Source of the DNA: an uncultured Anaerolineales bacterium
GTDB lineage: Bacteria > Chloroflexota > Anaerolineae > Epilineales > JAANWY01
DNA length: 29,736 nt
Assembly: GCA_964474265.1 (NCBI GenBank)
Contig: CAYYSH010000002.1
Coordinates: 1 to 29,736, forward strand
Direction of reading: 5' to 3'
Shown: positions 3 through 25,672 of the stretch, piece after piece
How positions within the stretch are numbered: the stretch's first letter is position 1
How the letters are laid out: each line of letters begins with the position of its first letter
Made by a program: the position numbers and the translations under genes
Notes under the pieces: generated by a model
What the model was told of the DNA's origin: nothing
Database searches by the model: none
The model's input: the letters and a program-made list of their open reading frames with translations, nothing else

Positions 3-3000
3 CGCGATGCTTACCGCTCGACGTCCTCTCAGCCTGGCGAAGTGACGATGACCGAATCTGTTTTGCGCGCCGGCCACCCCCTGGTGGCCGAAGACGTGTT
101 CAACACACCCTACCTCAGCCCACATATTGCCGCCCAGTTCCCGGCTCGCTCGTTGCTTGGCCTGCCCCTCATCGCCGACGGCCAGAAGCTGGGTGCGGCC
201 CTCATTGCCTTCAACCAGCCTCATCAGTTCACACCGGACGAGATCGCCAGGGGAGAGCAGGCAGCCCGGCAGGTCGCTCTGGCTATCGCCAAAGCCCGTG
301 CGCTGGAGGCAGAACGCCGGCGCGCTGACGAACTGGACGCGCTGCGAGGCATCATCGCCGACATCCTGACAGAACACGAATTGCCGAAATTGCTTCGCAC
401 GCTCCTGGAGCGGGCTGTCGCGCTACTGAATGCGACCGGGGGCGACCTGGGGCTGTACGACGAGGAGGCCCAGGAATTAGTGATTATTGTGAGCCATAAC
501 ATGGGCAAAGACTACGCCGGCACGCGCATGGCGTTGGGTGAGGGCGCGATGGGACAGGTGATGCAGACCGGCAAACCCGTGCTCATCGACGACTACATCA
601 CGTGGGAGCATCGCTCGCCCCAATACGCCGACGGTCCCTGGCACGCCGTCATGGCTGCACCGCTCATATCCGGAGAGCGGCTGATCGGCGCTCTTGGCAT
701 TGTGGACTCTGACCCACAGCGGCGGTTCACCCCCGACGACCTGCACCTGCTGAGTCTCCTGGCCAACCAGGCAGCTATCGTGGTCGAGAAAGCCCGCCTG
801 CTCAAAGAGGCGCAGGTCCGGGCACGCCGGCAGGCAGCCCTGGTTCAACTCAGTGTGGATCTTGCGGCCACCCTTGATGAAGAGGAGATTTGCCATCGCG
901 TGGTGCAAAGGCTGCATGATACACTCGGCTATGCCTACCAGGGCATCTTTCTGGTGGACGAATCCACCGGCGACCGCGTGCTGTGTGCCGGCATTGGCTG
1001 GCCAGATGCTCCCGCCGACTGGCGCATTCCGCCCGGCCAGGGCGTGAGTGAGCGTGCCATCCTGGATGGCCAGCTCCACTACACGCCGGATGTGACGAAG
1101 GAGCCCAACTACGTTCCCGGCCTGAACAGCGGCGCAGAGGTGGACGTGCCAATCTATGCTAGTGGCAAGGTGGTAGGAGTCCTGGTTGTTGAGAGTCAGG
1201 AGCCCAACGCCTTCGGCCCGAATGACTTTGAACTCCTGGAGGCCGTGGCGAACCAGGCCGGCATTGCCATGAGCAACGCCCGGCTGCTGCAGGAATCGCA
1301 GCGCCGGGCCGAAGAAGCAGAGACGCTGCGTCGGGCCGGCGCTGTTGTCGCCGCCGCACTCGAGCAAGACGAGGCCATCCAGCGTATCCTGGAGCAACTC
1401 GAGCTGGTGGTACCGTACGACAGCGCTTCGGTGCAGTTGCTACGCGAGGGGTACGTGGAAATTGTTGGCGGGCGCGGCTGGGCGGATCCAGCGACCGTAG
1501 TCGGGCTGCGTTTTCCGGTGCCCGGGGACAACCCCAACACCGTGGTCATCCAGGAGCGCCGGCCCTACATCCTGAACGACGCGCCGGCTGCTCATGCCCC
1601 CTTCCGCGAAGACCCTCATAGCCACATTCGATCGTGGCTGGGCGTGCCGCTGATCGTGGGAGACCGGGTCATCGGCATGCTGACCGTGGACAGCAAGCAG
1701 CCAGGCCACTTTACACCCGATCACGCCCGGTTGGTCACGGCCTTCGCCAACCAGGTAGCCATCACGTTGGAGAACGCCCGGCTCTTTGCTGAGGTCGAGC
1801 AGCGAGTCATGGAGTTGTCCATCATGCTCGAAACAGCCAGGGTGGTCTCGTCCACACTCCACCTCGAAGAGGTGCTTCCCATCATTGCCCGGCAAATGGC
1901 GCAGGCCATCGGCGTCTCTGGCTGTACTCTCTCGCAGTGGGACCGAGAGGCTGACGCCGTGGTGACGTGGATCGAGTGGCGTAGAGACTGGGGTGAGTAT
2001 AGCAGCGAACCGGGCACTGCTTATTCCTTGAAAGAGTATCCGGCTACCCGGGCGGTCCTTGAGAAACGCCACCCCGTTGTCATCCGGGTTTCAGACCCGG
2101 AGGCCGATCCTGCGGAGGTTGCTCTGATGCGAGAACAGAACATTTTAACCCTACTTATGCTACCGCTTGCCATCGGTGACAGGGTCATCGGCCTGGTCGA
2201 ATTGGACGATGAGGTGAGGGAACGAGAATTTACAAGCGACCAAATCCGTCTATCCCAGGCACTTGCGGATCACGCGGCCATAGCCATTGAGAACGCTCGC
2301 CTGTTCGAGGCAGAACGCAAACATAGCCAGGAGCTTGAAGCGCTGCACGAGGCCAGCCTGCGCCTCACTTCGAAGTTAGAATTGCAATCCGTGCTGGAAG
2401 CTATCCTGGATTACGCACTGAGACTGGCAGCGGCCACTGATGCTCACATCTTCCTCTACGATGGTGAACGGCTTTCCTTCGGCGCTGCCCTGTGGGCGAA
2501 TGGGCAGGAAGAGTCACCGTACATTGAACCCCGGCCCGAGGGGCTGACTTACACCGTAGCTCGCACCGGGAAACGTATCGTGGTGGACAATGTCAACCGT
2601 CACCCCCTGTTCAAAGACTGGCCCTGGGGCGGTGCTATCGCCGGCCTGCCCCTGCGCATTGGTGGTCAGGTGTGTGGAGTGATGAATGTCGCTTTTGACA
2701 AACCGCACACTTTTGAGGAAGACGAACTGCGCGTGCTGGAGCTCCTGGCCGACCAGGCCGCCATTGCCATTCGCAATGCCCAGCTCCATGCCGAAGTTCA
2801 GGCGCTGGCTATCACCGATTCCCTCACCGGCTTCTACAACCGGCGTGGCCTGTTTGAGCTGGGCCGGCGTGAGGTCGAGCGCGCCCGGCGCTTTGGCCGG
2901 CCTCTTTCCGCCCTCATGCTGGATCTGGATCACTTCAAGCTTGTGAATGACACCTATGGCCATCACATCGGCGACCAGGTGCTGGCCGAGCTAGCCGCCT

Positions 3001-3320
3001 GTTGCCGGCAGGTTCTGCGCGACGTGGACCTGTTGGGGCGGTACGGCGGCGAGGAGTTCGTATTTCTCCTGCCCGAAACTGGCGTCGCCGCTGCTGAGCC
3101 GGTGGCCGAAAGACTGCGCCGGCATGTGGAGCGCTCACTCATGAACACAGATCGCGGCCCGATATCCATCACCATCAGCCTGGGGGTCGCTCAGTTAGAC
3201 GAGACCTGCCCTGACCTGGAGACCCTGCTCGAACATGCCGACCAGGCCCTGTACGTCGCCAAGCGATCAGGGCGGAACCAGGCCCGCGTCTGGCAGGCAA
3301 ATGACCAGGACGTCCCGTAA
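3..3320 (+). CDS. Multi-GAF diguanylate cyclase (at least 6 GAF + GGDEF), 5'-partial
   Basis: The frame is open from base 3 (RDAYRSTSSQPGEV...), so the track's GTG at 42 is internal. Six GAF-ending motifs (e.g. LANQAAIVVEKARL, FANQVAITLENARL, LADQAAIAIRNAQL). C-terminal DSLTGFYNRR, LDLDHFKLVNDTYGHHIGD, RDVD I-site (3018-3029), GGEEF A-site (3045-3059), ADQALYVAKRSGRN. Confidence 0.95.
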   Translation, partial: RDAYRSTSSQPGEVTMTESVLRAGHPLVAEDVFNTPYLSPHIAAQFPARSLLGLPLIADGQKLGAALIAFNQPHQFTPDEIARGEQAARQVALAIAKARALEAERRRADELDALRGIIADILTEHELPKLLRTLLERAVALLNATGGDLGLYDEEAQELVIIVSHNMGKDYAGTRMALGEGAMGQVMQTGKPVLIDDYITWEHRSPQYADGPWHAVMAAPLISGERLIGALGIVDSDPQRRFTPDDLHLLSLLANQAAIVVEKARLLKEAQVRARRQAALVQLSVDLAATLDEEEICHRVVQRLHDTLGYAYQGIFLVDESTGDRVLCAGIGWPDAPADWRIPPGQGVSERAILDGQLHYTPDVTKEPNYVPGLNSGAEVDVPIYASGKVVGVLVVESQEPNAFGPNDFELLEAVANQAGIAMSNARLLQESQRRAEEAETLRRAGAVVAAALEQDEAIQRILEQLELVVPYDSASVQLLREGYVEIVGGRGWADPATVVGLRFPVPGDNPNTVVIQERRPYILNDAPAAHAPFREDPHSHIRSWLGVPLIVGDRVIGMLTVDSKQPGHFTPDHARLVTAFANQVAITLENARLFAEVEQRVMELSIMLETARVVSSTLHLEEVLPIIARQMAQAIGVSGCTLSQWDREADAVVTWIEWRRDWGEYSSEPGTAYSLKEYPATRAVLEKRHPVVIRVSDPEADPAEVALMREQNILTLLMLPLAIGDRVIGLVELDDEVREREFTSDQIRLSQALADHAAIAIENARLFEAERKHSQELEALHEASLRLTSKLELQSVLEAILDYALRLAAATDAHIFLYDGERLSFGAALWANGQEESPYIEPRPEGLTYTVARTGKRIVVDNVNRHPLFKDWPWGGAIAGLPLRIGGQVCGVMNVAFDKPHTFEEDELRVLELLADQAAIAIRNAQLHAEVQALAITDSLTGFYNRRGLFELGRREVERARRFGRPLSALMLDLDHFKLVNDTYGHHIGDQVLAELAACCRQVLRDVDLLGRYGGEEFVFLLPETGVAAAEPVAERLRRHVERSLMNTDRGPISITISLGVAQLDETCPDLETLLEHADQALYVAKRSGRNQARVWQANDQDVP

Positions 3321-3342: not shown

Positions 3343-4971
3343 ATGCAACCTGCAAACCACATGAAACTCGACCAATTGCTGGATTCGCGACAACTGGAAC
3401 AATTTCTGCACGCCCTCGTTGAGCTCGTACCAGTGACCCTGCACGTGGAGGGTTCAAACGGCAAGTTGCTGGCACAGGCGCGGCCAACAGGAGTGAGGAG
3501 CAACACTGCGTCCCCGCCTCTGGAGCACCTGCACAGGACAACCCGGGCAGAGGCACGTGTGCCTGTCGAAATCCACGGCGAGCGAATTGGACAGGTCGTC
3601 GCTGTCGCCGCCGATCCCGAACAGGGCATGGCTCCCCTGGTCGAGTCTGCGGCGCGGCTGGTGGCTCACATTGTGGCCGATCAGGCATACAAAGAGCACG
3701 AACTGAACAGCCTGTCAACCGAACTGCTGGATAAGTACGAAGAGATTACCTTGCTGTACGACCTCAGCCAGGCGTTGGGCTCCATCTTTGACATTTCTGC
3801 CCTGTGCAACATTGCGCTGGAGAAAGCCGCGCAGGCTGTGCCGGCTGCCAAGGGCTTCGTGATGCTCAAAGATAAGGACTCACAGAACCTCACCGTGGTG
3901 GCCGCTCGCGTGGACGGGCTGGTGGGGTGGAAAACGCCGGTTGGTGTGGGCATCAGCGGGCGCGTGGCCGAGTCCGGGAAGCCGATTCTATTGCTGGAGG
4001 GCGAACAGCTTCCCTCGCGCAAGCCGGAAGAGCAGGGGCCGCGCGATGCAGTGCTCTCGGTGCCGCTCGTGTTATCTGCTGCCGAGGATGAGGAAGTGCT
4101 GGGCGTGATCACGCTGGCCGGCAAGCCTCGTGGCGAGATGTTCACAGCCGGCGATGCAAAGCTGCTACGAACAATCGCCACGCAACTGGCTATCGCCATC
4201 CACAACAGCCGGCTGCTCCAGGCCCAGCGGGAAGCCGAGCGCGTGCGGCAAGAGATGGAAATTGCGGCCCGCATCCAGCGCAACCTGTTGCCCAATCGGC
4301 CACCGGACCTGCCAGGCATCGAGGTCGCTGGGCGGTGCCTCCCGGCGACCAACGTGGGGGGCGACTACTACGACTACCTGGTGGACCAGGAAGGCCGGCT
4401 AAACCTGATCATCGCCGACGTCTCCGGCCACAACATCGGCGCAGCCCTGATGATGGTCATGGCCCGCAGCATCCTGCGACGCGAGATCGGCGAGGGGAAA
4501 TCGCCGGCCAGCGTCCTGGCCCGCACCAACACCGCTCTGTTACACGATCTGACCAACGCCGAATTGTTCATCACCATGTTCTGCGCACGCTACGACCCCG
4601 CCACCCGTTGTCTGACCTTCGCCAACGGGGGGCACAATCCGCCGTTGCTGCGGCGCTCAAGCGATGCACAGATCGTGGAACTCGACGGAGATGGTATGAT
4701 CGTGGGCATTCTGGAAGATGTGTCGTTTCAAGAGCAAACTATCACGCTGGAGCCAGGCGACCTCCTGCTCCTGTACACCGACGGTATCGTCGAGGCACGC
4801 AACGCCGAGGGTGAGCAGTTCGGTGATGGCCGGCTGCGAAAACTTCTGATCGATGGCGGTGCATTGCCTCCCGACATGCTGGCGGACCGAATTCACGCGG
4901 CTGTTCGTGAGCACAGTCGAGACAGCGCCCAGCAAGACGATGTTACGCTGCTGATTCTGAAAGTCGAGTGA
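3343..4971 (+). CDS. GAF-containing PP2C/SpoIIE (RsbU-like) serine phosphatase, 542 aa
   Basis: GAGGAG SD at 3334-3339 precedes ATG 3343 (the track start at 3235 overlaps the previous gene). PP2C motifs VGGDYYD, IADVSGH, LLYTDGIVEA and QQDDVTL are all intact. A GAF domain and coiled coil lie upstream. Confidence 0.93.
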   Translation: MQPANHMKLDQLLDSRQLEQFLHALVELVPVTLHVEGSNGKLLAQARPTGVRSNTASPPLEHLHRTTRAEARVPVEIHGERIGQVVAVAADPEQGMAPLVESAARLVAHIVADQAYKEHELNSLSTELLDKYEEITLLYDLSQALGSIFDISALCNIALEKAAQAVPAAKGFVMLKDKDSQNLTVVAARVDGLVGWKTPVGVGISGRVAESGKPILLLEGEQLPSRKPEEQGPRDAVLSVPLVLSAAEDEEVLGVITLAGKPRGEMFTAGDAKLLRTIATQLAIAIHNSRLLQAQREAERVRQEMEIAARIQRNLLPNRPPDLPGIEVAGRCLPATNVGGDYYDYLVDQEGRLNLIIADVSGHNIGAALMMVMARSILRREIGEGKSPASVLARTNTALLHDLTNAELFITMFCARYDPATRCLTFANGGHNPPLLRRSSDAQIVELDGDGMIVGILEDVSFQEQTITLEPGDLLLLYTDGIVEARNAEGEQFGDGRLRKLLIDGGALPPDMLADRIHAAVREHSRDSAQQDDVTLLILKVE

Positions 4972-5007
4972 CGGTGATCAGGGAGCAGTGACTTGGGAGG
5001 AATGACG

Positions 5008-5364
5008 ATGGAGAATACGATTCTGGTGGTAGATGATTCACCATTTATGGTGCGCACGCTGAGCTTCATTCTGGAGAAGGCCGGCTATACTGTCGCCACC
5101 GCCGGCAGCGGGACAGAGGCCCTGGCCCAGGCCCGGGCTACACAGCCCCGGCTGATCCTTCTGGATTCGGTGATGCCGGGCATGGATGGCCGCCAGGTGC
5201 TGGAGTCGATCCGGCAAGACCCCTCGCTCCAGAAAGCGCGAGTGGTGATGGTGAGCGGCTCGGACGCCGATGACCTGCCGGAGGCAGACGGCTTCGTCGC
5301 CAAACCGTTCACGCCGGACAAAGTGCTTGAGACAGTCGCCCGCCTGATCGAGGCGGGGAGTTAG
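5008..5364 (+). CDS. Single-domain response regulator (REC), 118 aa
   Basis: ILVVDD acidic pocket, LILLDSVMPGMDG phospho-Asp, VVMVS, FVAKPF. GGAGG SD at 4996-5000 favours ATG 5008. Confidence 0.92.
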   Translation: MENTILVVDDSPFMVRTLSFILEKAGYTVATAGSGTEALAQARATQPRLILLDSVMPGMDGRQVLESIRQDPSLQKARVVMVSGSDADDLPEADGFVAKPFTPDKVLETVARLIEAGS

Positions 5365-5380
5365 CAACTGGAGGCCGGCC

Positions 5381-6484
5381 ATGACCCCCAAACATGTGGA
5401 CTCAGTGAAGCAACAACTGGCGCTGATCAGCACCGTCAGCCGGCAGATTACCTCTATCCTGGATCGCGATGACCTGCTGGATGTTGTGGTCGCGTCGATT
5501 CACGAGATGCTCGGCTACGATGTGGTCCACCTGTTCTTGCTTGACGCCGCCAGCGGGGACCTGGTGTTTCAGGCCGGAACAGCGCCGGCAGGGCCGGCGC
5601 TGAAGGCACAGGCGTTCCGCATTGCCGGGGATCGGCAAAGCATCATCGCCTGGGTGGCCCGTCACGGCGAGCCCTTGCTGGTCAACGACGTCAGCCAGGA
5701 ACCCCGCTATCTGGCCCACGAGTTGCTGCCGGACACCCGCTCCGAGCTGGCGCTGCCGCTCAAAATGGGTGGCCGCGTGCTCGGGGTGCTGGATGTGCAG
5801 AGTGATCAGGTCAACGCGTTCACTGACGACGACCGGTTTGTGCTCGCTACCCTCGCGGATCAGGTGGCCGTTGCTGTGGAGAACGCGCATCTCTTCGACT
5901 CGCTGCGGGAGAAAGAACGTCAACTGGCTTATCAGATCGAGCGGGCCAACGATGCTATCTTCAACATTGATCTGGCCGGCTGTTTTACCTCATTCAACAA
6001 CGCTGCTGAGGAAATCTCGGGCTATCGCCGGCAGGAGGTGTTAGGCCGGCCCTTCACCGATCTGCTGTGTCCCGAGTACCACGCCGAGATGCTGCGCCGG
6101 CTGCGCGACGGCGTGGAGCAACATCCGGGCCAGACGTACGAGGTGGCGTTCTTCCACAAACTGGGCCACCGCGTGCCCATTGAGATCAGCATCACGGCAC
6201 TGCGACGGGATGGCCGGCCAGCCGGCGCCCTGGTCATCGCCCGCGACATCCGGCAGCGCAAACGCCTGGAGCGAGAGATCCTGGACTTCATCTCACAGAT
6301 TTCCCACGACCTGCGCACGCCGCTGGCAACTATCCTCTCCTCCTCTGAGATTTTGCTGAGTTATGACGAGGAGCCCGAAACTCGACGCGAGTTTCTGGAG
6401 ATGATCCACCACGAAGCGCGGCGGCTGGCAGAGATGATCGACGAGATCGTGGACCTGCGCAGCAAGATGGATACAGGAGGTTAG
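5381..6484 (+). CDS. GAF-PAS-HisKA(DHp) protein lacking the HATPase_c domain
   Basis: GAF (...LADQVAVAVENAHLF), PAS (NDAIFNIDLAGCFTSFNNAAEEISGY...ARDI), H-box ISHDLRTPL (His codon 6305-6307). The stop follows directly after the second DHp helix. GGAGG SD at 5370-5374. Confidence 0.88.
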   Translation: MTPKHVDSVKQQLALISTVSRQITSILDRDDLLDVVVASIHEMLGYDVVHLFLLDAASGDLVFQAGTAPAGPALKAQAFRIAGDRQSIIAWVARHGEPLLVNDVSQEPRYLAHELLPDTRSELALPLKMGGRVLGVLDVQSDQVNAFTDDDRFVLATLADQVAVAVENAHLFDSLREKERQLAYQIERANDAIFNIDLAGCFTSFNNAAEEISGYRRQEVLGRPFTDLLCPEYHAEMLRRLRDGVEQHPGQTYEVAFFHKLGHRVPIEISITALRRDGRPAGALVIARDIRQRKRLEREILDFISQISHDLRTPLATILSSSEILLSYDEEPETRREFLEMIHHEARRLAEMIDEIVDLRSKMDTGG

Positions 6485-6560
6485 AGAGGGCCGCTAGACT
6501 GAAGGCCGAGGGATGGTCAGCTATCGTGGAAATAGCTGCAGTACTGGTGAGGAGAAATAC

Positions 6561-6938
6561 ATGTCCAACAGCAAGATTTTAGTCGTTGATGACGAACCAT
6601 TCATCCTGCGCACGCTGACTTTCGTGTTGAAAAAGGAGGGTTATGACATCGCTACGGCTGTGAACGGGGAGGAAGCCCTGGCCCAGATTCGAGCGTCGGA
6701 GCCATCTCTGGTTTTCGTGGATGCCATGATGCCCAAGAAAGACGGCTACCAGGTTGCACAAGAGGTGCGCGACGACCCGACTCTCAAGCGGCAGCCGTAC
6801 ATCATCATGCTGACAGCCCGGGGCCAGGAGTCCGACCGCGAGAAGGCCGAGAGAGTGGGTATCAATGAGTTCATGACCAAACCCTTCAGCCCATCAAAGG
6901 TGGCAGCACGGGTTCGAGAGATTCTGGAACGTACATAA
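6561..6938 (+). CDS. Single-domain response regulator (REC), 125 aa
   Basis: ILVVDDE, LVFVDAMMPKKDG, IIMLTA, FMTKPF. GAGGAG SD upstream of ATG 6561 (the track start at 6513 is probably too early). Confidence 0.93.
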   Translation: MSNSKILVVDDEPFILRTLTFVLKKEGYDIATAVNGEEALAQIRASEPSLVFVDAMMPKKDGYQVAQEVRDDPTLKRQPYIIMLTARGQESDREKAERVGINEFMTKPFSPSKVAARVREILERT

Positions 6939-6952
6939 AAGGAGGTTTTTCC

Positions 6953-7288
6953 ATGGAGATTCAGGTCGAACGAAACGGAACGGTGGCTGTAGTGGCTGTC
7001 GCCGGCCAGGTAGAGGCAGCAACAGCCCCCCAGCTCAGAGAACAGTTCGATGGCCTGCTCGGTGATGGCGAGCAAAATTTCGTCATCGACCTGTCGGGGG
7101 TGACGTTTATGGACAGTTCCGGCCTGGCCACGTTGGTCCAGCTCTTCAAACGCGTTCGCATTGGCCATGGCGACGTCCGGTTATGCGGCCTGCAACCCGA
7201 AGTGCAACGCATTTTCGAACTGACGCGGCTCGACCGCGTGTTCGATCTCTTCCCGGACCGCGTCGAAGCTGTGGCCAGCTTCCACTGA
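6953..7288 (+). CDS. STAS anti-sigma-factor antagonist (RsbV/SpoIIAA family) #1
   Basis: 111 aa with IDLSGVTFMDSSGL phosphorylation-loop motif. AGGAGG SD. Confidence 0.93.
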   Translation: MEIQVERNGTVAVVAVAGQVEAATAPQLREQFDGLLGDGEQNFVIDLSGVTFMDSSGLATLVQLFKRVRIGHGDVRLCGLQPEVQRIFELTRLDRVFDLFPDRVEAVASFH

Positions 7289-7295
7289 TGCAGCC

Positions 7296-7724
7296 ATGGC
7301 CGAAACGACTCACGAAACTTTAGTTATTCACAGCCGGCTGGCTGCAGTCGCCGAGGCGCGCCGCTGGGCATCTGACCACGTTCGTGCAGCCGGGTTCGAC
7401 AACGACGTAGTTTTCGCCGTGGAACTTGCCCTCAGCGAGGCGCTCACCAACGTCATCGAGCATGCCTATGCCGGAGATGAAACGCAAGAGATCCGCCTGT
7501 CCCTGGCTATCGACGATGAGAAACTACGTCTGACGATCCGGGACTTCGGTCGGAAGTTCGACCTGTCGAGCTACCAGTCACCGAACCTGGATGTGCCAGC
7601 GGAGGGAGGTTATGGCGTGTACCTGATCCACCAACTGATGGATGAGGTTAACTACGACACGTCGCCGGCGCAAGGGACACGGCTCAGCCTGGTTAAGTAT
7701 CGAGTAGGAGGAACTCATGCATGA
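7296..7724 (+). CDS. RsbW/SpoIIAB-type anti-sigma serine kinase (HATPase_c_2)
   Basis: N-box ELALSEALTNVIEHAY, G1 IRDFG, G2 EGGYGVYLIHQLMDEV. Adjacent to a STAS gene. Confidence 0.92.
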   Translation: MAETTHETLVIHSRLAAVAEARRWASDHVRAAGFDNDVVFAVELALSEALTNVIEHAYAGDETQEIRLSLAIDDEKLRLTIRDFGRKFDLSSYQSPNLDVPAEGGYGVYLIHQLMDEVNYDTSPAQGTRLSLVKYRVGGTHA

Positions 7725-9018
7725 CGTCTGCCTGATTCTGGAAGGCACCTATCCATATATCACCGGTGGCGTGTCAGCCTGGGTGCAGGCTCTGCTCGCC
7801 GGCCTGCCCGACCTGGATTTCGCCCTCGTTCATCTGAGCGCTGGTAATGGCCGGAAGCCTCCAAGCCGGTATGCACCGCCGGCCAACCTGACCGAGTTCA
7901 TCGAGTGGCCTCTGGACGTTGGGGAGGTCAGGGTGCGGAGAAGCCAGCAGTTGGTGGGAAGAAGGTGGGATCCTCACCTCACTCCCGCCTCGCTGCCCAA
8001 AGCACGAGTGTACCACGCTCTGTCCACTGGGTTCGCCGGCCTGCTGGGCTGTCAGGTGAAACTGGCCACAGGTCGCCCCCTCATCCTGACGGAGCACGGC
8101 ATCTACTGGCGTGAAGTGCAGGCCGGTGCCGGCGAACTGGAGTGTGGCTTCCGGGTCGTGCCAGATGGGAACGATTGCATCAGCCTGCATGTGGTGCGAA
8201 ATCACTGGACGGTGGCTCTCCAGGAGGCGGCACGCCAGGCCTACGCTCAGGCGGACGTCATCACCACCGTGTGTCGGGCCAATGCCCGACTGCAATTCGC
8301 TCTTGGCGCACCCCCTTCGCGGTGCCAGGTCATCCACAACGGCGTGGATTGGCCGGCACTGGCGCCCAACGGCGCTCGCTCGCCGGCCACCGACGGCATC
8401 TACCGCATCGGCTTCGTCGGTCGAGTCGTGTCAATCAAAGACGTTGCCACATTCCTCAAGGCATGCCAGTTGGTGGCCGGCGAGCTGCCCACCGCCCACT
8501 TCTACGTCATCGGGCCACTGGATCACGATCCGCCCTACGCGGCCTATTGCCAGAGCCTGGCCGCCGGGCTGGGCCTGGAAGACCGCGTGACCTTCACGGG
8601 CGAAACCGATCCTGTGCCCTGGTACCGCCGGCTGGATGTTGTCGCGTTGACGAGTGTCAGCGAAGGACAGCCGCTGGCCCTGTTGGAGGCGATGGCTGCC
8701 GGCGTGCCGGTCGTCGCCACGGCCGTAGGCGGGTGCCCGGAGCTGATCCTGGGAGCCACGCCGCAGGACCGAGACCTGGGGCCGGCCGGGCTCCTGACGC
8801 CGGTCCGTGATCCCCAGGCCACGGCCCATGCCATTTTGGCGCTATGCCATGATGTGGACCGGTGGCGCCGGGCATCGTGGGCCGGCCAGCATCGGGTGCG
8901 CCAGTTCTACTCGATCGAGCATCTATGTCAGGCCTATCGAGCTCTGTACCTTGGCATGCTCGGACGGACCAATGTCGAACCTGCGTACGCGCAAAGTGTT
9001 AACGGGAGAGTGCTATGA
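7717..9018 (+). CDS. pelF: PelF-like GT4 glycosyltransferase (DUF3492-type N-terminus) #1
   Basis: DVCLILEGTYPYITGGVSAW, LILTEHGIYWRE, VIHNGVD, FVGRVVSIKD and the E-x7-E motif SEGQPLALLE are all PelF hallmarks. Confidence 0.85.
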   Translation: MHDVCLILEGTYPYITGGVSAWVQALLAGLPDLDFALVHLSAGNGRKPPSRYAPPANLTEFIEWPLDVGEVRVRRSQQLVGRRWDPHLTPASLPKARVYHALSTGFAGLLGCQVKLATGRPLILTEHGIYWREVQAGAGELECGFRVVPDGNDCISLHVVRNHWTVALQEAARQAYAQADVITTVCRANARLQFALGAPPSRCQVIHNGVDWPALAPNGARSPATDGIYRIGFVGRVVSIKDVATFLKACQLVAGELPTAHFYVIGPLDHDPPYAAYCQSLAAGLGLEDRVTFTGETDPVPWYRRLDVVALTSVSEGQPLALLEAMAAGVPVVATAVGGCPELILGATPQDRDLGPAGLLTPVRDPQATAHAILALCHDVDRWRRASWAGQHRVRQFYSIEHLCQAYRALYLGMLGRTNVEPAYAQSVNGRVL

Positions 9019-9728
9019 GGATTGGAATACTTCACCAATACAGCCTGCTTAGCTCCGGTAGCGGGGTGTACACAGTGCACGTGACTCAGCGATTGCTGCG
9101 GCGCGGCCACCAGGTATGCCTTGTGTGCCGGGATTTCGAGTTGGATCGCCATATCTTTATCGACGAAGCCTTCATCCACGAAGGGCAGCACACGCAACGG
9201 GTGTTTCGGCGTCGTCGCGAGCCGGCGTGCAGTGCTCACGCGCTACACAGCAAGGTTATGCCTGTGGCCTATCCGCGTGCGGAGACGCCCAATGGCCGGC
9301 TGTTCACGGACCTGACCGACGAGGAGATTCGCGAGTACGTGGCGTATCACGTGGATCGGGTCGCCTACATTGCCCGCCGGCACCGCCTGCAGGTACTCCA
9401 CGCCAACCACGTCGTGCTCATGCCTTACATCGCACTGCAGGTGAAGCGCCAGTTGGGCCTGCCCTACGTGGTAACTGTCCATGGCAGCACGATTGAGTTC
9501 GTGGTGAACCAGGATGAGCGTTATCGGCAGCACGCTGTGGCCGGCCTGCGCGGCGCAGATCGAGTGATTGCGCTAAACCCGGAAGTGCGGGACCGTGTCC
9601 TCCAGATCTGTCCCGACCTTGGAGGCCGGCTGACCAGCATTTCGGTCGGCGTGGACACAAGAGTGTTTCGACCGGTGTACGTGAGACCGCTGGAGGTCAC
9701 CAGCCATGTCGTATCAGCATACGGGTAG
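9015..9728 (+). CDS. GT4 glycosyltransferase, N-terminal Rossmann half
   Basis: SGSGVYTVHVTQRLLRRGHQV, LHANH, PYVVTVHGS, ADRVIA, VGVDTRVFRP, then a stop. ATGA overlap with the pelF stop. Confidence 0.85.
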   Translation: MRIGILHQYSLLSSGSGVYTVHVTQRLLRRGHQVCLVCRDFELDRHIFIDEAFIHEGQHTQRVFRRRREPACSAHALHSKVMPVAYPRAETPNGRLFTDLTDEEIREYVAYHVDRVAYIARRHRLQVLHANHVVLMPYIALQVKRQLGLPYVVTVHGSTIEFVVNQDERYRQHAVAGLRGADRVIALNPEVRDRVLQICPDLGGRLTSISVGVDTRVFRPVYVRPLEVTSHVVSAYG

Positions 9729-10599
9729 GCAGCCGTCTGTCTATCGCACTCCATCCTTCTCCGGCAACGGCAGTACGCCTGCGTCGGCAGGTCCCCCCGG
9801 AGGGGGATTGACCAGGGGAGGCCGGCGGGGGACACGAACCGTGGCCTTCGTCGGCAAGCTCTCGCTGGAGAAGGGCGTGCACTGCCTGATCGCAGCATTG
9901 CCGGCCATTGTGGCCGCGTTTCCTGACGCGCATTTGCTGCTCATCGGTGACGGGGTAGCCAGAGGCTCCCTGGAGAGGATGTTGCTTGCGCTGGATCGCG
10001 GGGACCTGCATGCGGCCACTCAGGCCCTGGCGGAAGCGCCAACCACCGCCCAGGAAGAAGCGTGGATTACGCCTGTGACCCTGTTTTGGGAACATGTGGA
10101 CCGGGTCACATACCAGGCGGCGGCCCGCGCAGCCGACCTGGTCAGCCATGTGACTTTCACTGGCTATCTGCCGCATACGGAGATTGCCGGCATCTTGCCA
10201 GACGCCGACCTGTTGGTGATCCCGTCTCTGGTCAAAGAGGCCTTCCCGCTGGTATCTCTGGAGGCTCTGGCGTGCGGGGTGCCGCCGGCCGGCCCGTATC
10301 GCGGCGGACTCATCCCAATCCTGGACGAAATCGCGGCCGCGCTTGGCCCGGTGGCTGATCTAATCCGGCTTGACCCACACCCCGAAGCGTTCGTAGCAGA
10401 TTTAGCCCACAAGGTGCCAGAGCTGTTGGAATACCTCTCCTGGCCGGACATTCGAGAAGATGTGGCCCGGCAATGTTGGGCGATCGCAGCGGGTAAGTAC
10501 GACTGGGACCGCGTTGTGGATCGGGTAGAAAGCGTGTATCGCGACGTGTTGTCCCAAGCACGTCCGGCTGATCGAAGAACACACCTGCCCAGTTCGTAG
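9706..10599 (+). CDS. GT4 glycosyltransferase, C-terminal nucleotide-sugar-binding half
   Basis: VAFVGKLSLEKGVHCLIAA, VTFTGYLP, E-x7-E motif PSLVKEAFPLVSLEALACG, YDWDRVVDRVESVY. GGAGGT SD at 9692-9697. Confidence 0.85.
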   Translation: MSYQHTGRQPSVYRTPSFSGNGSTPASAGPPGGGLTRGGRRGTRTVAFVGKLSLEKGVHCLIAALPAIVAAFPDAHLLLIGDGVARGSLERMLLALDRGDLHAATQALAEAPTTAQEEAWITPVTLFWEHVDRVTYQAAARAADLVSHVTFTGYLPHTEIAGILPDADLLVIPSLVKEAFPLVSLEALACGVPPAGPYRGGLIPILDEIAAALGPVADLIRLDPHPEAFVADLAHKVPELLEYLSWPDIREDVARQCWAIAAGKYDWDRVVDRVESVYRDVLSQARPADRRTHLPSS

Positions 10600-10697: not shown

Positions 10698-11525
10698 ATG
10701 CGTGAGACGAAAGCTGTCATTCTGGCTGCGGGCAAAGGGACTCGCATGAAATCCGAGCTGCCCAAGGTGCTCCACACCGTCGAAGGCCGGCCCATGGTGC
10801 AACACAGCATCGAACGGGCGCGGGCTGCCGGCATTGGAGACGTCATCATCGTCGTCGGCTATCGACGGGACCTGGTGATGGAGGCTCTGGAGGGCTGGGA
10901 CATCCAGTTTGCCATTCAAGAAGAACAGCGCGGAACCGGCCACGCCGTAGCCCAGGCACGAGAGTACCTGGAAGGCTTCGACGGTAACGTGGTCGTGCTG
11001 TACGGCGACATGCCCCTCCTCAGCGAGGACACCATTCGCAGCCTGATCCAACGGCGCGACAGGCTGGATGCTGCCGGCGTCATCTTGACCATCGTCCTGG
11101 ACAATCCGCCGGACTTCGGACGCATTGTGCGGGACCGGCAAGGGCGTGTACTCCGAGTTGTGGAGGCGAAAGACGCCTCGCCGGAGGAACTGGCGATCCG
11201 GGAGGTAAATGTCGGGGCCTACTGCTTTGATTGCCAGGCGCTGCTGCCAGCGCTGGACCAACTGAGAGACGACAATCAGCAAGGCGAGTACTATCTCACG
11301 GACGTGGTAGAGATCTTAGCCCGGGATGGCCATCAGGTGGAGACAGTTGTGACGCCCAACCTGGAAGAGGCGTTGGGGATCAACGACCCGGTGCACCTGG
11401 CTTTCGCCGAGAAGCTGGGCGACATCCGTTACGCCGAGAGTCTTTACGAGCTGATTGACGCCACACTGGCCATGAGTCGGGCGCGCAGCGTGGCCGGCAC
11501 GCCCCAAACCCATCCCCTGGCGTAA
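10698..11525 (+). CDS. GlmU-like sugar-1-phosphate uridylyltransferase, N-terminal domain only
   Basis: VILAAGKGTRMKSELPKVLH, QRGTGHAV, YGDMPL, EVNVGAYCF, QQGEYYLTDVV, GIND. No hexapeptide-repeat acetyltransferase domain follows. AGGAGG SD. Confidence 0.88.
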   Translation: MRETKAVILAAGKGTRMKSELPKVLHTVEGRPMVQHSIERARAAGIGDVIIVVGYRRDLVMEALEGWDIQFAIQEEQRGTGHAVAQAREYLEGFDGNVVVLYGDMPLLSEDTIRSLIQRRDRLDAAGVILTIVLDNPPDFGRIVRDRQGRVLRVVEAKDASPEELAIREVNVGAYCFDCQALLPALDQLRDDNQQGEYYLTDVVEILARDGHQVETVVTPNLEEALGINDPVHLAFAEKLGDIRYAESLYELIDATLAMSRARSVAGTPQTHPLA

Positions 11526-11570
11526 AGGCCAGCCCAGCAGGTCTCAAGAAACGCAGATGGAGGCGACGTG

Positions 11571-13850
11571 ATGGGCGGATTCAGGCGGGCTCTTCAGAGT
11601 CTGGCGCAGCGGCTGGTGGATGGTTGGTCCAGCCTGCGCGGCCGGGTTCTGGCCGGCCTGGAGGCCACGGCAAGGGTAGCACGCTCGTTCCTCATGCTTG
11701 CAACTGAGGCCGGCTTCTGGCTTGCCCGGCAAATCTGGCAGGCCAGAAGCCGGCGTCAGGCGCACAACCAAGCCGTATCAGCCAGAACCTGGCTCCTGCG
11801 CCTTTTGCAGGCGGTGCTCTTTATGCCGCTACTTCTGGTTGCATACCGGGTCATGACCCAGGAGCCGGCCTTGCCCCAGGCTCCGGCTTACGCCAGCGCC
11901 CGCCAGCAGCGCATCCTGGTAGTGCACAACACGGCAGACAGCTATGGGGAGCAGGCCTACGCTAACGCGCTCCGCGCCCTGGACTATGCCCGGTTAAATT
12001 ACGAGAGTCTCGACCTCGCCAACTTTGAAGGGTGGCCAGATCTGGAGCAATACAGCTCACTGCTCTTCGTCACCGAGATGTTGGACGGCATCGACGAAGC
12101 CCAGTCTCAGCAAATTGCCGACTATGTGGCCGGCGGTGGCGGACTGGCTGTTGTTTATCGTGGCTGGAATCCCTACCTGGCGTCTCTCTTCGGGATGAAG
12201 GCCGGCGCGGAGTACCCTGAGTTGATCGAAGGTGAGGGAGGGCTGAACTTTCAAGCGGATCTTTTCCCTGGAGTCAAGGGGCTCGTTCTGAGCGAAAAGA
12301 CCATCCCCGACCTCTCGGCATTCGATGTAAGCCTGCAGCGAGAGGCTCAGGTCCTGGCCAGTTCCGGTTCAGGCCGGCCCATCGTCTGGCTCTACCGTCA
12401 CGGCCAGGGCCGGGTGATTTACTGGAACACGGTTTTCCTGACGGAGAAAGAAGCGCGCGGCTTCATCGTCCAGTCGGTGCTGGGCGCCCAGGGGGTGGGG
12501 GTGTTGCCCATTGCCAACTTTGCCACCTTCCAGATAGACGATTTCCCGGCCTCGATCTCCACCAAGAAACTCGAGCCCCTGGCAACTGAATATGACCTGA
12601 CTCTGGTCGAGTTCTACCACAAGGTCTGGTTCCCAGACATGATGGAGATCGCTCACCGTTACGGGTTAGTATACACCTTTCTGATTCCTTTCAACTACAA
12701 CGATCGGGTTGAGCCCCCATTTGGATTTCGCGAATGGGAGCATGCGAGTGTGCAGGAAGACAACCAGCCTGTCTTCTACTCCATCTACGTCTCTCATCTG
12801 GCTGCTCAGCAGCACGAGCTGGGCCTCCATGGCTATAACCATATCTCGCTCACCCTGGAAAACTGGCCCAGCGAGGAGAACATGGTGCTGGCGTTGCAGG
12901 AGGCTTCCAGGCGCTGGGATGCGGATAACCTGGGACCCCAGCCGGTCACTTACGTGCCGCCGAACAACATTTTCGATGAGGCCGGCGCGCGAGCCTTGAC
13001 CAGGAGCTTTCCATCGTTGAGAATCCTGGCGAGTATCTACACGGGGCGCTTTGAGAAAGGTGGCAATCGGGAATTCGAGCCAGAGCCCTGGAACCCGAAA
13101 CTATTCGACATCCCACGACTGACTGACGGGTATCATTTGGATCCGTACATGCGGTATGTCATGATTTCCGAACTCGGCATGATGGGTATCTGGACGCACT
13201 TTATTCACCCCGATGACGTTGTCCATACGCCGGCCAACTACCCCGATGCCCCGTATCATCGCAACCCGAATTACTGGCCCTGGCGCGGAGACAACACCGG
13301 CGAGAGAAACGGGTTCTACTATCGCCTTCTACACTGGCTGGACTTCGCCAAGACGTTCTATCCATGGTTGCGCTATATCCGCACCGCCGACTCACTTGAT
13401 ATTCTGCGCTCGCATCTGGAGAACCAGGTGTCAGTTGAACTCAAGCCCTTTGAGGTGATCTTGCACACAACCACCCCAACGTACTTCCAGGTACGCATCA
13501 ATGACAGGCGACGCCTCTTCTTCAACGACATGTCGGGTGCCCAATTTGTCCATGCATATTATGGGGAAGGATATACTCTCTACACCTTGCGCGGCCTGAA
13601 GAAGGAAGTTCGTCTGAGCTTGATCATTCCAGCATCTGAACCAGGCACGACTCCGGGCGCACAGCCCGGCAACCTGTTCGCGCCCGTTGGAGACCATGAG
13701 GAGCTAGGGCCAAAGGACCTGCAAGACGAAACGCTCTGGCAGCCGGCGAGTGTCCCGGGATCAGCATCTGAGACCCCGCCGGCCTCTGCCCCCCCTCCGC
13801 GCATGGATGCCCTGCCGGTGAGCACACCGACGCTTCGGAGGCGACCGTGA
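11571..13850 (+). CDS. DUF2194-type / PelA(DA)-like membrane-anchored polysaccharide deacetylase (CE4-like)
   Basis: One hydrophobic segment (LLRLLQAVLFMPLLLVAY), then an alpha/beta domain. CE4-like motifs FQIDDFP, HELGLHGYNH, YVPPNN, THFIHPDD. Pro-rich tail. GGAGG SD at 11559-11563 favours ATG 11571. Confidence 0.75.
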   Translation: MGGFRRALQSLAQRLVDGWSSLRGRVLAGLEATARVARSFLMLATEAGFWLARQIWQARSRRQAHNQAVSARTWLLRLLQAVLFMPLLLVAYRVMTQEPALPQAPAYASARQQRILVVHNTADSYGEQAYANALRALDYARLNYESLDLANFEGWPDLEQYSSLLFVTEMLDGIDEAQSQQIADYVAGGGGLAVVYRGWNPYLASLFGMKAGAEYPELIEGEGGLNFQADLFPGVKGLVLSEKTIPDLSAFDVSLQREAQVLASSGSGRPIVWLYRHGQGRVIYWNTVFLTEKEARGFIVQSVLGAQGVGVLPIANFATFQIDDFPASISTKKLEPLATEYDLTLVEFYHKVWFPDMMEIAHRYGLVYTFLIPFNYNDRVEPPFGFREWEHASVQEDNQPVFYSIYVSHLAAQQHELGLHGYNHISLTLENWPSEENMVLALQEASRRWDADNLGPQPVTYVPPNNIFDEAGARALTRSFPSLRILASIYTGRFEKGGNREFEPEPWNPKLFDIPRLTDGYHLDPYMRYVMISELGMMGIWTHFIHPDDVVHTPANYPDAPYHRNPNYWPWRGDNTGERNGFYYRLLHWLDFAKTFYPWLRYIRTADSLDILRSHLENQVSVELKPFEVILHTTTPTYFQVRINDRRRLFFNDMSGAQFVHAYYGEGYTLYTLRGLKKEVRLSLIIPASEPGTTPGAQPGNLFAPVGDHEELGPKDLQDETLWQPASVPGSASETPPASAPPPRMDALPVSTPTLRRRP

Positions 13851-13865
13851 CCTGCGAGATCGACG

Positions 13866-15863
13866 ATGAAGTATCACACCCAGGCGCTGATAGCTATCTC
13901 GAAGCTTGTGGGCTGGTTCGTGGTGCTGTTCGTCTGGCTCCCGCGTTGGCTTTTCCCACGCCCGGCAGTACCCGGGAGCGGCGCGCGGTTTTTCGCCAAC
14001 CTGGCCCGCATGGTTCTGGCAACAGCAATCATCATACAGGGGCTGGTACTGTTGCACCTGTTCGACTTCTTCTCCCTGGTGGCCAGCTACCTGGTGCTGG
14101 GAGCCGGGATTGCCAGCCTGCGTCGGGGCCGGCTGCCCATCGCCGAGCTGGATCAGGCCGTCACGCAGTTGGAGGCAACGATCATCGACATGCTGGAGGG
14201 GAACTTCCCTTACCACACGTGGCTCAACCGGGCGGGGCAGCGGTTTCAACGCTGGGTTCTTACCTGGCAGCCAGACAGAGACACCATTGCCTGGGGGATG
14301 GTGTTGGGCATGGTGTTGCTTATCAGCGCCGGCCTCCGGCTGGCTGGTGTGCCGACCAGGGCTGCGCCCGGCGACCCGGGCACCTACCTGCACATGGCCT
14401 GGACCCGCTTACTGGCCAGCAACACCATCTGGCCCAACGGTGCCTATCCGTTGGGTGCCCACAGTTGGATCCAGACCATCGCACAGTTCGCCCGGGTGGA
14501 CGAAGCGCTGCTCGTTCGAACGGCAGGGGGGCTGGTGGGGCTCCTGCTGACGCTAGCGGTCTACGTATCCGTTCGCTGGGCCGGCGCCGGACAGGGAGCG
14601 GCGGTGGTGGCGACAGCCACGTATGGCATGTTCATTTTCGCGGGTGTGCTGCCCGCCGGCGCATCTCGCCAACAAGAGTTGCATCCGTTCGAATTCGGGC
14701 TCGTGTTCTTGCTACCATCGTTGATGTTCATCTCCGAATCCCTGGACTCCTTTCAATGGCCACTCTTCCTGCTGGCCGGCGAATGCCTGGCGGCCGCCTC
14801 TGTCCTGCACCCGGTGGCCGGCCTGTTCGGGCTGCTCGGATTGGTGGCGGTGTTGGCAGTTCAAGCAGTGAGCGGGCGCAGAGCGTTCCGCTGGATCGGG
14901 TGGGCTGTGGCTGCCGGCGGCCTCGCCACCTTACTCGGCAATTTGTTCTTGCTGGTGGCACGTCTGATGGGCCGGCCCCGCCACCAGGGCGTGCTGGACA
15001 TCGTCGTCACCTTCTTTGCGCCCGGGCGGCCGGACCCGGCGTGGCAATCGCTGGTGTGGGGGTTGGCAGCACTGGGAGCTGGTCTGCTGTTGTCGCCACC
15101 CCATCACCGGGCGCTGTTTCGACGGAGTACCGGGCTCTTCCTGGGATTGCTGGTGGCCCTCTTCATGGGGTATCCGGCCCTTCTGGCTCCCGACAAGGTG
15201 GGAATTCCGCTGTCTCTGGTGGCCGCCGTGGGGCTGGGGGTGGAGTTGGACATTGTGCTGACGGCGCTTCGGCAGCTCATTGGCCGGCTGGGAATGCCGC
15301 GCCTGCACCCGTCTATCGGATTGACGGCCGGCCTGGTCGCCCTCGCCATTGCCGGCGTGACCGTGATATCACCGCCGCTGCAGGCGGACCCTGGTCCGCC
15401 CCAGGAGCCGGAGTCCCTGGCGCGGGCTCTCTACCAGATCAAAACCGATCATCTGGCCTATACCTGGACTGTGGTTGGATACCCGGAGGCATTGCCACAG
15501 GTGCTGGGGCGCGGCTATTTCCTGTCGTGGAAGGATTTCCTGGCGAAGTACGATCCGGTCGCGTATCGTTTCGATCCGCGAGATCCGGATCTGGCGATCC
15601 CAACTCGCTACGTGTTTATCATGGTTGAAAAGCAGGTGTTCGTCGGTCCCAACGATCTGGCCGCAGATACATTGGAAAGAGCCAAACTACAGGTGGCTCT
15701 CCAGGACTGGGTCGCGCGCTATCAACAGTACCACGACGATATGAGCATTTACTACGAGGATAGTTCAGTTGCTGTCTACCAGATTTATCGGTCGCCGGAG
15801 ATTGAGCGACAGATCATTGAAGAATACGAGGCGGAACAGTTCCAGCGGAGGAAACAGCGATGA
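13866..15863 (+). CDS. Multi-pass integral membrane protein (possibly GT-C/PMT-like), function unknown
   Basis: 665 aa with many hydrophobic segments, an early loop GDPGTYLH...YPLGAH and a soluble C-terminal domain. Lies between the deacetylase and the HD protein. Confidence 0.8.
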   Translation: MKYHTQALIAISKLVGWFVVLFVWLPRWLFPRPAVPGSGARFFANLARMVLATAIIIQGLVLLHLFDFFSLVASYLVLGAGIASLRRGRLPIAELDQAVTQLEATIIDMLEGNFPYHTWLNRAGQRFQRWVLTWQPDRDTIAWGMVLGMVLLISAGLRLAGVPTRAAPGDPGTYLHMAWTRLLASNTIWPNGAYPLGAHSWIQTIAQFARVDEALLVRTAGGLVGLLLTLAVYVSVRWAGAGQGAAVVATATYGMFIFAGVLPAGASRQQELHPFEFGLVFLLPSLMFISESLDSFQWPLFLLAGECLAAASVLHPVAGLFGLLGLVAVLAVQAVSGRRAFRWIGWAVAAGGLATLLGNLFLLVARLMGRPRHQGVLDIVVTFFAPGRPDPAWQSLVWGLAALGAGLLLSPPHHRALFRRSTGLFLGLLVALFMGYPALLAPDKVGIPLSLVAAVGLGVELDIVLTALRQLIGRLGMPRLHPSIGLTAGLVALAIAGVTVISPPLQADPGPPQEPESLARALYQIKTDHLAYTWTVVGYPEALPQVLGRGYFLSWKDFLAKYDPVAYRFDPRDPDLAIPTRYVFIMVEKQVFVGPNDLAADTLERAKLQVALQDWVARYQQYHDDMSIYYEDSSVAVYQIYRSPEIERQIIEEYEAEQFQRRKQR

Positions 15864-23476: not shown

Positions 23477-23543
23477 TGCGTGGTCAGGTGCTAAGCGCGA
23501 GCATGTAAGGAACGGCACCTGACTGGCGTGGAGGAGAGAAACT

Positions 23544-25598: not shown

Positions 25599-25672
25599 AG
25601 GGGGCGGAGTCCGAGGCCTGACACATGGCAACCTGGCGGACTGCGCCTGTAGCATTGGGAATGAGGGAGGCT

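Follow-up and report, generated by a model that had tools for sequence, protein, structure and literature searches.

A partner switch of the RsbU/RsbV/RsbW type is encoded within a Pel-like polysaccharide cluster on a 29,736-nucleotide contig of an uncultured Anaerolineales bacterium. This stretch, referred to here as the window, spans contig C2 entirely; the contig belongs to a metagenome-assembled genome (MAG) of 2.57 Mb in 287 contigs that is 75% complete, and the nearest public loci carry the labels Anaerolineae or Anaerolineales, Chloroflexota. We propose that the switch is integral to the cluster and gates the polysaccharide synthase at the protein level rather than via a sigma factor, a reading to which we assign a probability of roughly 50%. 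Partner switches are textbook sigma regulators; this one is tied to sugar-polymer synthase genes instead. The evidence centers on one pair of genes, in which an RsbW-like kinase gene directly precedes a gene for a short PelF-type glycosyltransferase (PelF1), an arrangement that recurs across phyla.

Domains of the window proteins were assigned by Pfam and NCBIfam profile searches. The genes of interest all lie on the + strand and are separated by short gaps or overlaps. Those of the switch and of the glycosyltransferase pair, with lengths in amino acids (aa), are as follows.

3343-4971, + strand: GAF-PP2C phosphatase of the RsbU/SpoIIE type, 542 aa, with an N-terminal region and a GAF sensor (PF07228, GAF_2).
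4993-5364, + strand: REC1, a stand-alone receiver (PF00072, 1.4e-22; DD, D, S, and K residues present).
5381-6484, + strand: GAF-PAS-HisKA protein with the H-box SHDLRTPL and without an ATPase (CA) domain (Pfam, translation).
6513-6938, + strand: REC2, a stand-alone, OmpR-family-like receiver without an output domain, directly before STAS1 (PF00072, 8.7e-28; NCBIfam).
6953-7288, + strand: STAS1, of the SpoIIAA/RsbV type, 111 aa, with Ser55 in FMDSSG (TIGR00377, 91.5 bits; cut-off 53.45).
7296-7724, + strand: RsbW/SpoIIAB-like GHKL serine kinase, 142 aa, single domain (PF13581 HATPase_c_2, 5.5e-32).
7717-9018, + strand: PelF1, a short PelF-type GT4 glycosyltransferase, 433 aa (NF038011, 328 bits, cut-off 100; PF11997 and GT1).
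15860-17731, + strand: GAF-HD-GYP protein (PF13487, 7.7e-23; HD, HHE, and GFP motifs; Cys-rich C terminus).
17830-18171, + strand: STAS2, of the SpoIIAA type, 113 aa, with FMDSSG (TIGR00377, 91.1 bits; cut-off 53.45).
18955-20832, + strand: PelF2, a long PelF-type GT4 glycosyltransferase, 625 aa (NF038011, 127 bits; cut-off 100).
20840-22621, + strand: PelG-like polytopic membrane protein (start set after the PelF2 stop).

The set amounts to a genuine phospho-switch, comprising a single GAF-PP2C phosphatase, a pair of STAS proteins, and a single GHKL serine kinase; kinase, STAS substrate, and phosphatase are all encoded in one operon. The phosphatase matches the SpoIIE/PP2C profile PF07228 as a full-length domain (5e-58, 196.6 bits, profile positions 2-191 of 192), has a GAF_2 match in Pfam (3e-16), and contains the metal-binding motifs GGDYYD, DVSGH, YTDG, and DDVT. 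In alignment to 1th8_B, the FMDSSG of both STAS proteins is identical to the SpoIIAA phosphorylation loop, and the best solved matches of STAS1 are TM1442 and SpoIIAA. The kinase scores 110.9 bits against PF13581 (cut-off 27.4), and its ATP-binding motifs are intact when aligned to RsbW (6m36) and SpoIIAB (1th8): N-box E48/N52/H56, G1 D83-x-G85, and G2 G104-G-Y-G107. Its scores lie under the RsbW and SpoIIAB equivalog cut-offs (NF003144, 71.5 bits against 145; TIGR01924, 59.8 against 155; TIGR01925, 51.9 against 135); it is a member of the superfamily and not an RsbW or SpoIIAB equivalog. The closest solved structures for the switch proteins are RsbW/RsbV and SpoIIAB/SpoIIAA. In REC1 and REC2 alike, an acidic pocket, a phospho-acceptor Asp, and the Ser/Thr and Lys residues are present; the start of REC1 is ambiguous (TTG 4993, ATG 5002, or ATG 5008).

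An earlier note on this DNA, made from the letters alone, had described a phosphatase, a STAS protein, and a serine kinase with intact motifs, preceded by a diguanylate cyclase and followed directly by a glycosyltransferase. The profile matches and motif alignments bear out the three parts, the cyclase is a 6xGAF-GGDEF protein with a GGEEF site at 3-3320, and the glycosyltransferase is PelF1 (7717-9018). The three-part description stands as far as it goes, but it missed REC1, the CA-less GAF-PAS-HisKA protein, and REC2 between the phosphatase and STAS1, as well as the second STAS gene (17830-18171) after the GAF-HD-GYP gene. An iterative search of the six-frame translation of the 75%-complete assembly found no further STAS, PP2C, or small RsbW-like genes. 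That this might be the only partner switch of the family was considered and rejected, being true of the window's incomplete assembly and false for relatives with further modules.

The kinase and pelF1 genes are closely joined. In the window, the pelF1 ATG overlaps the kinase stop by 8 nt (ATGCATGA), and AGGAGG lies inside the 3' end of the kinase gene. We collected 1873 PelF1 homologues at E<=1e-40, determined domain architecture for the best 120 of these, and viewed the neighborhoods of ten that were picked for long contigs or named taxa. With the related Anaerolineae and metagenome loci added, 22 of 23 loci that have a short PelF1 gene show an RsbW-like gene as its immediate upstream neighbor (14/14 Anaerolineae and metagenome loci; 8/9 further loci reached via PelF1 homologues). 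These loci belong to Chloroflexota, Actinomycetota, and Bacteroidota/Ignavibacteriales. Where measured, the two genes usually overlap by 4-8 nt and are otherwise no more than ~20 nt apart. A STAS gene stands in front of the kinase in 17 of the 22 kinase-PelF1 loci. The ten neighborhoods read as follows.

L164, Solirubrobacterales MAG: REC-PP2C, GAF-HD-GYP, STAS, kinase, PelF1, PelF2, ~540-aa protein.
L169, JGI contig: the order of L164, with REC-GGDEF upstream.
L166, Conexibacter MAG: the order of L164 from HD-GYP onward; no PP2C gene in the stretch shown.
L165, JGI contig (protein labelled Thermoflexia by NCBI): SpoIIE, then further on HD-GYP, STAS, STAS, kinase, PelF1.
L163, Ignavibacteriales MAG: GH114+kinase fusion, PelF1, epimerase, PelF2; no STAS or PP2C nearby.
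P0108, Bacteroidota MAG: GH114, kinase, PelF1, epimerase, PelF2; no STAS or PP2C nearby.
P0089, ENA contig: GH114, kinase, PelF1, epimerase, PelF2, as in P0108; no STAS or PP2C nearby.
L168, JGI contig: kinase, PelF1, epimerase, PelF2; no GH114; REC-PAS-HD-GYP further upstream.
L167, NCBI MAG: PelF1, PelF2, PelG, TPR; no kinase.
L170, Logan contig: full-length single PelF, then PelG; no kinase.

All three switch components (PP2C, STAS, and kinase) are co-encoded in Anaerolineae, Thermoflexia-like, and Solirubrobacterales loci. In the Bacteroidota/Ignavibacteriales-type loci the kinase stays with PelF1 though STAS and PP2C are not nearby, and in one MAG it forms a single frame with a glycoside hydrolase (GH114), itself a polysaccharide enzyme. 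The kinase ATP-binding motifs are invariant in the Actinomycetota and Bacteroidota-type loci as well. The actinobacterial loci L164 and L169 encode a REC-PP2C fusion with a separate kinase, and REC-GGDEF genes flank two actinobacterial loci. The earlier note had inferred that the switch has either a non-transcriptional output or a distant sigma target. That inference is supported, and the comparative evidence favors the first option and, within it, the synthase, because the kinase-PelF1 pair is near-constant and translationally coupled across phyla. The same adjacency places PelF1 in the slot that the sigma gene occupies in sigB and sigF loci.

Within the class, the PelF1 type was found in 10 genomes from at least six families in a sample of 401 genomes, and every one of these that has upstream sequence shows the order (HD-GYP)-STAS(1-2)-kinase-PelF1. 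MAGs of the same family keep the arrangement DGC-PP2C-(REC1)-REC2-STAS1-kinase-PelF1...HD-GYP-STAS2-PelF2 (where DGC denotes the diguanylate cyclase) at 60-85% identity; REC2 is 80-82% identical to its family relatives, and the cyclase upstream of the PP2C gene is also kept in G002 and G003. REC1 is accessory, missing from G003 and from the compact operons of other families. Such a compact operon, PP2C-HD-GYP-STAS2-STAS1-kinase-PelF1-PelF2-PelG-like-membrane protein-DUF2194, occurs in G090 and G044, both from other Anaerolineae families; G052 has the compact-operon order from PP2C through PelF2, and G053 has HD-GYP-STAS1-kinase-PelF1. A window-like arrangement, CheA-PP2C-REC-HisKA(no CA)-REC-STAS-kinase-PelF1, is found in G403. 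Metagenome contigs with 46-52% PelF1 identity likewise follow the conserved order. The order STAS2-STAS1-kinase appears in G090, G044, G052, L137, and L165. Because the two STAS genes are adjacent in these other lineages, we regard STAS1 and STAS2 as one module and their separation as derived in the window's family.

The catalytic motifs are kept along with the order of the genes. F-x-D-S-[ST]-G is present in 20/20 STAS copies of related loci, the three ATP-binding motifs in 14/14 kinases of divergent loci, and all four PP2C motifs in 9/10 phosphatases, the L137 copy being without the last motif. Since gene order and catalytic motifs are kept in all related loci examined, the switch arrangement is not a matter of chance. 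In G038, a genome from another Anaerolineae family (91% complete), no RsbW-like kinase was found and the contig breaks inside pelF1; a STAS gene of this genome overlaps with both its neighbors, namely with the end of the GT4 gene before it and with the beginning of a cellulose-synthase-like GT2 gene after it (L033:2360-4878).

The kinase was also compared with its 80 nearest homologues in species-representative genomes. Most of these relatives show STAS-kinase...PP2C without a sigma gene, and a gene for a group-1-to-3 sigma factor adjoins the kinase in only 3 of the 80, so a sigma-less module is not unusual in itself. PelF stands beside the kinase only in the five closest relatives. The PelF-adjacent kinases form one tree group with a single Acidobacteriota sequence (SH-aLRT 97), apart from two sigma-preceding kinases; deeper forks of the tree are unreliable because the alignment is short. 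The Acidobacteriota locus reads PP2C-REC-HK-kinase-[PAS-HisKA without CA]-STAS, where HK denotes a histidine kinase.

In sigB/sigF-type loci, the sigma gene normally follows the anti-sigma gene. The window departs from this pattern, as the earlier note had claimed: no sigma-70 region-2 or SigBFG match was found on the contig. Nor was a sigma gene found in any of the related loci examined, and no sigma factor scored above the SigB/F/G cut-off in ten module-bearing Anaerolineae genomes. A group-3 sigma as the target was considered and rejected: none was found in the window's assembly, and the relatives G002, G003, and G005 have ~260-aa sigmas, none of them beside a switch module. The four of these that were tested (G002, G003) are FliA/WhiG-like, three over the cut-off of that family. 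The RpoD-like paralogues of the window's genome number six, on G000 contigs C85, C182, C161, C175, C53, and C237 of the 2.6 Mb assembly, alongside at least twelve sigmas of the ECF type, and the numbers in relatives are similar.

Taken as a protein-level gate, the switch could work as follows. The kinase would bind PelF1, or a complex of PelF1, PelF2, and the PelG-like protein; pelF1 holds the position that the sigma gene has in rsbV-rsbW-sigB and spoIIAA-spoIIAB-sigF. Unphosphorylated STAS1 or STAS2 would compete for the kinase and so free, or otherwise activate, the PelF1/PelF2/PelG-like synthase, and phosphorylation of Ser55 of FMDSSG by the kinase would reset the switch. The GAF-PP2C phosphatase would strip the phosphate on a signal perceived via its own GAF domain and, in this lineage, via a relay from CheA to a receiver, possibly including the CA-less HisKA protein. 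The GAF-HD-GYP protein and the upstream cyclase may add a layer of cyclic di-GMP (c-di-GMP) control where no PelD was found. From gene order we infer which proteins bind one another, which partner is switched, and in which direction the regulation acts. By analogy with SypA and All4160 (discussed below), unphosphorylated STAS would correspond to polysaccharide ON. A more specific version, which we put at somewhat less than even odds, is that the RsbW-like protein acts as a dedicated "anti-synthase," pairing with short PelF1 as RsbW does with SigB and displaced by STAS, and that this kinase is the signature of an undescribed two-PelF Pel-like system in at least three phyla.

Chemosensory genes recur beside the module. 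They occupy 22652-28957 in the window, CheA stands directly before PP2C in G403 (L162:2-655), and CheR and CheA-REC (L164:10335-13161) adjoin a Solirubrobacterales cluster. This recurrence suggests a Che-type input to the switch, probably through the stand-alone receivers.

Several observations weigh against gating of the synthase. Adjacency of the kinase and pelF1 genes is not binding, and the adjacency of HD-GYP and STAS suits a c-di-GMP output equally well. One locus with short PelF1 (L167) is without the kinase, and no STAS-PelF or kinase-PelF fusion was found among the best 120 of the 1873 PelF1 homologues, which have the plain PelF architecture throughout. The Ignavibacteriales genome of the STAS-less locus carries seven stand-alone STAS genes at other sites, on which its kinase may still depend. 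Further partner-switch modules occur in four same-family MAGs that are 89-95% complete, with possible cross-talk. The window's assembly contains six RpoD-like frames of ~390-409 aa and at least twelve extracytoplasmic function (ECF) sigmas, and a sigma target elsewhere is possible in a genome that is 75% complete. Finally, a partner switch acting on a group-2 sigma is known from Shewanella, where CrsR/CrsA acts on RpoS. As for fusions of other kinds, the only one found joins GH114 to HATPase_c_2 in one Ignavibacteriales MAG: at L163:4853-6004 (JAPLFQ010000024), directly before pelF1, a single 383-aa frame spans both domains, either as a true fusion or through a frameshift in the assembly. The long PelF of G011 was rejected as fusion evidence, since nothing but an unassigned C-terminal region is joined to it; its neighbor is an Agd3-like deacetylase, and the locus has no switch.

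Because HD-GYP-STAS adjacency is conserved, an output through c-di-GMP is the main rival explanation, one that we consider unlikely. In this scheme, unphosphorylated STAS (especially STAS2) would bind the GAF-HD-GYP protein or the upstream cyclase and alter c-di-GMP turnover or sensing, and thereby the synthase; the kinase would merely set STAS phosphorylation, with a logic like that of HsbA-HsbD or SiaC-SiaD of Pseudomonas. A GAF-HD-GYP gene lies directly before a STAS gene in the window and in G002, G003, G090, G044, G052, G053, L137, L164, L165, L166, and L169, and as the conserved STAS neighbor, the HD-GYP protein, which keeps its HD, HHE, and GFP motifs, is a candidate target. The lack of a recognized PelD in the window, the GGEEF cyclase upstream, and the REC-GGDEF genes at the two actinobacterial loci fit the same scheme, and activation of a cyclase by a STAS-like protein is documented for SiaC-SiaD (PMC8457831). 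What this explanation leaves unaccounted for is that the kinase, not STAS, is the constant, translationally coupled neighbor of PelF1, and that the kinase-PelF1 pair persists in Bacteroidota-type loci without an adjoining HD-GYP or STAS gene.

Cross-phylum coupling of kinase and PelF1 is equally without explanation if the kinase is a classical anti-sigma factor whose distant target (an RpoD-like paralogue, an ECF sigma, or an unassembled sigma) transcribes the cluster, which we hold to be improbable. The best solved and curated matches of the kinase are RsbW and SpoIIAB, the incomplete genome offers the RpoD-like and ECF candidates counted above, and non-adjacent group-2 sigma targets are known from CrsR/CrsA; yet the kinase falls below the equivalog cut-offs, the related loci gave no sigma gene, the ten module-bearing genomes gave no sigma above the SigB/F/G cut-off, and the group-3 sigmas of the relatives are of the FliA/WhiG type and lie away from partner-switch modules.

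A very improbable alternative concerns the CA-less GAF-PAS-HisKA protein, for which the RsbW-like protein would serve as a detachable CA domain, the two forming a split histidine kinase that feeds REC2, with STAS competing. The GHKL fold is common to CA domains and RsbW-type kinases, and genes for a CA-less HisKA protein are repeatedly found near kinases of this clade: in the window, in G403 and G038, and in the Acidobacteriota locus, where the gene directly follows the kinase. The CA-less gene is missing, although the kinase is retained, in G002 and G003, in the compact operons of Anaerolineae, and in every actinobacterial and Bacteroidota-type locus, and a REC-HisKA-REC phosphotransfer relay is a simpler account of the CA-less protein. 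The CA-less HisKA (dimerization and histidine phosphotransfer, DHp) genes lie at window 5381-6484, L162:3325-4374, L131:10485-11171, and L042:8416-9363; two receivers flank the gene in the window and in G403, REC2 follows it in G038, and the kinase gene immediately precedes it in the Acidobacteriota MAG. The protein may act in a REC-His-REC phosphotransfer relay or in a split histidine kinase. Being missing from most loci, the gene is accessory; that it is lineage-specific is ruled out by its presence in G403, G038, and the Acidobacteriota locus.

Comparison with known systems is consistent with control of the synthase by the switch. SypE/SypA of the Vibrio fischeri syp locus, a STAS switch in a polysaccharide locus that acts post-transcriptionally and for which the SypA target is unknown (PMC4517449), is the closest functional analogue. 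Both systems have a STAS protein with a phosphorylatable Ser in a polysaccharide locus, regulated through an RsbW-like kinase together with a PP2C phosphatase and receiver input, and neither offers evidence of a sigma target; for SypE/SypA, the unphosphorylated STAS is the active form (PMC4517449). They differ in that SypE is one polypeptide with kinase, REC, and PP2C parts, whereas in the window the kinase, the receivers, and the GAF-PP2C phosphatase are separate genes. Moreover, the syp locus is not a PelF/PelG cluster, while the window has two STAS genes and a kinase gene translationally coupled to a glycosyltransferase gene. In the HenR/Alr3423/All4160 module of Anabaena PCC 7120 (Mol Microbiol 2026), the phosphorylation state of a STAS serine is determined by an RsbW-like kinase together with a SpoIIE-type phosphatase (PMC13555669). 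That module directly controls a polysaccharide glycosyltransferase, not a sigma factor, and its STAS-enzyme fusion is called largely cyanobacteria-specific by the authors (PMC13555669). In Anabaena, the STAS domain is fused to a Bac_transf priming transferase, and the genes lie apart from one another; the window instead has free-standing STAS proteins and a PelF-type GT4 as the glycosyltransferase, the genes form one operon, and the system occurs in three other phyla.

The Bacillus systems RsbU-RsbV-RsbW-SigB and SpoIIE-SpoIIAA-SpoIIAB-SigF share with the window the same three protein families, their motifs, and the STAS-kinase order. Unlike in Bacillus, pelF1 rather than a sigma gene follows the kinase, and the genomes searched yielded no SigB/F/G-class sigma. 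HsbR/HsbA-HsbD of P. aeruginosa is a sigma-independent STAS phospho-switch that feeds c-di-GMP and biofilm polysaccharide. SiaC-SiaD of the same species is likewise a sigma-independent, STAS-like phospho-switch feeding c-di-GMP and biofilm polysaccharide (PMC8457831). In the Hsb and Sia systems, a diguanylate cyclase co-encoded with the switch serves as the output, and neither system is part of a synthase operon, whereas the conserved c-di-GMP neighbor in the window is the HD-GYP protein; SiaC, in addition, belongs to DUF1987 and is not a SpoIIAA-type STAS as in the window.

As in canonical Pel (pelABCDEFG; Gram-positive pelDEADAFG), the window encodes a PelF GT4 with a DUF3492 N-terminal region and a candidate PelG-like protein, with sugar-nucleotide genes and c-di-GMP enzymes nearby. 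Unlike canonical Pel, it has two PelF paralogues, a partner switch, a DUF2194 protein, and a 665-aa membrane protein, and PelD, PelE, and PelA were not recognized. A published survey of pel operons mentions no partner switch, STAS, or anti-sigma genes (PMC7112194), and our literature search found no paper linking pelF and pelG with RsbW. A co-mention of PelF and "anti-sigma factor antagonist" was rejected, as it came from an unrelated P. aeruginosa infection study. The system as a whole is a free-standing three-part switch with two STAS proteins in a two-PelF Pel-like operon, widespread in uncultured Chloroflexota and Actinomycetota, with a reduced, kinase-only form in Bacteroidota-type loci.

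The remaining genes of the window are listed below.

3-3320, + strand: diguanylate cyclase, 6xGAF-GGDEF, with GGEEF active site and RxxD I-site; 5' end cut by the contig end (Pfam).
9015-10599: split GT4 glycosyltransferase in two overlapping frames, 9015-9728 and 9706-10599.
10698-11525: GlmU-N-like nucleotidyltransferase.
11568-13850: DUF2194 protein.
13866-15863: unassigned 665-aa membrane protein.
18208-18942: second nucleotidyltransferase.
22652-28957, + strand: chemosensory genes cheR, MCP (methyl-accepting chemotaxis protein), cheW, cheB, and cheA, without cheY (Pfam).
28976-end (29734): PAS-Trans_reg_C gene, cut by the contig end (Pfam/NCBIfam).

No PelD c-di-GMP receptor (transmembrane-GAF-degenerate GGDEF), PelE, or PelA hydrolase/deacetylase was recognized among the window proteins by Pfam or NCBIfam; in their place, the window has the GAF-HD-GYP, DUF2194, and 665-aa membrane proteins. 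The PelG-like protein (20840-22621) gave no Pfam or NCBIfam match and no BLASTP similarity to canonical PelG; its full-length identity to the protein of L167 with a PelG (PF16933) match is 34% (E 2e-106). A short PelF (~380-440 aa) paired with a long PelF (~500-625 aa), followed by a ~540-590-aa protein related to the PelG-annotated one, is seen in the window, L158, L159, L164, L166, and L169, and this PelF pair looks like a distinct two-PelF Pel subtype across several phyla. The GT4 gene after PelF1 is split in the window, and its homologue in G038 is one 554-aa frame (L033:699-2363). The gene at 28976-29734 encodes a PAS domain and an OmpR-type winged helix without a receiver, and REC2 is an OmpR-family-like receiver without an output domain.

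The mechanism of many sigma-less partner switches is mostly unknown, and the kinase-PelF1 pair provides an explicit candidate target. If the kinase binds PelF1, the pair would show at the molecular level how a Pel-type synthase can be gated after translation. If the proposal is true, it would also explain how such clusters manage without PelD, and it would point to a widespread, undescribed two-PelF variant of Pel in floc- and biofilm-forming environmental bacteria, such as the Anaerolineae of sludge and sediments.

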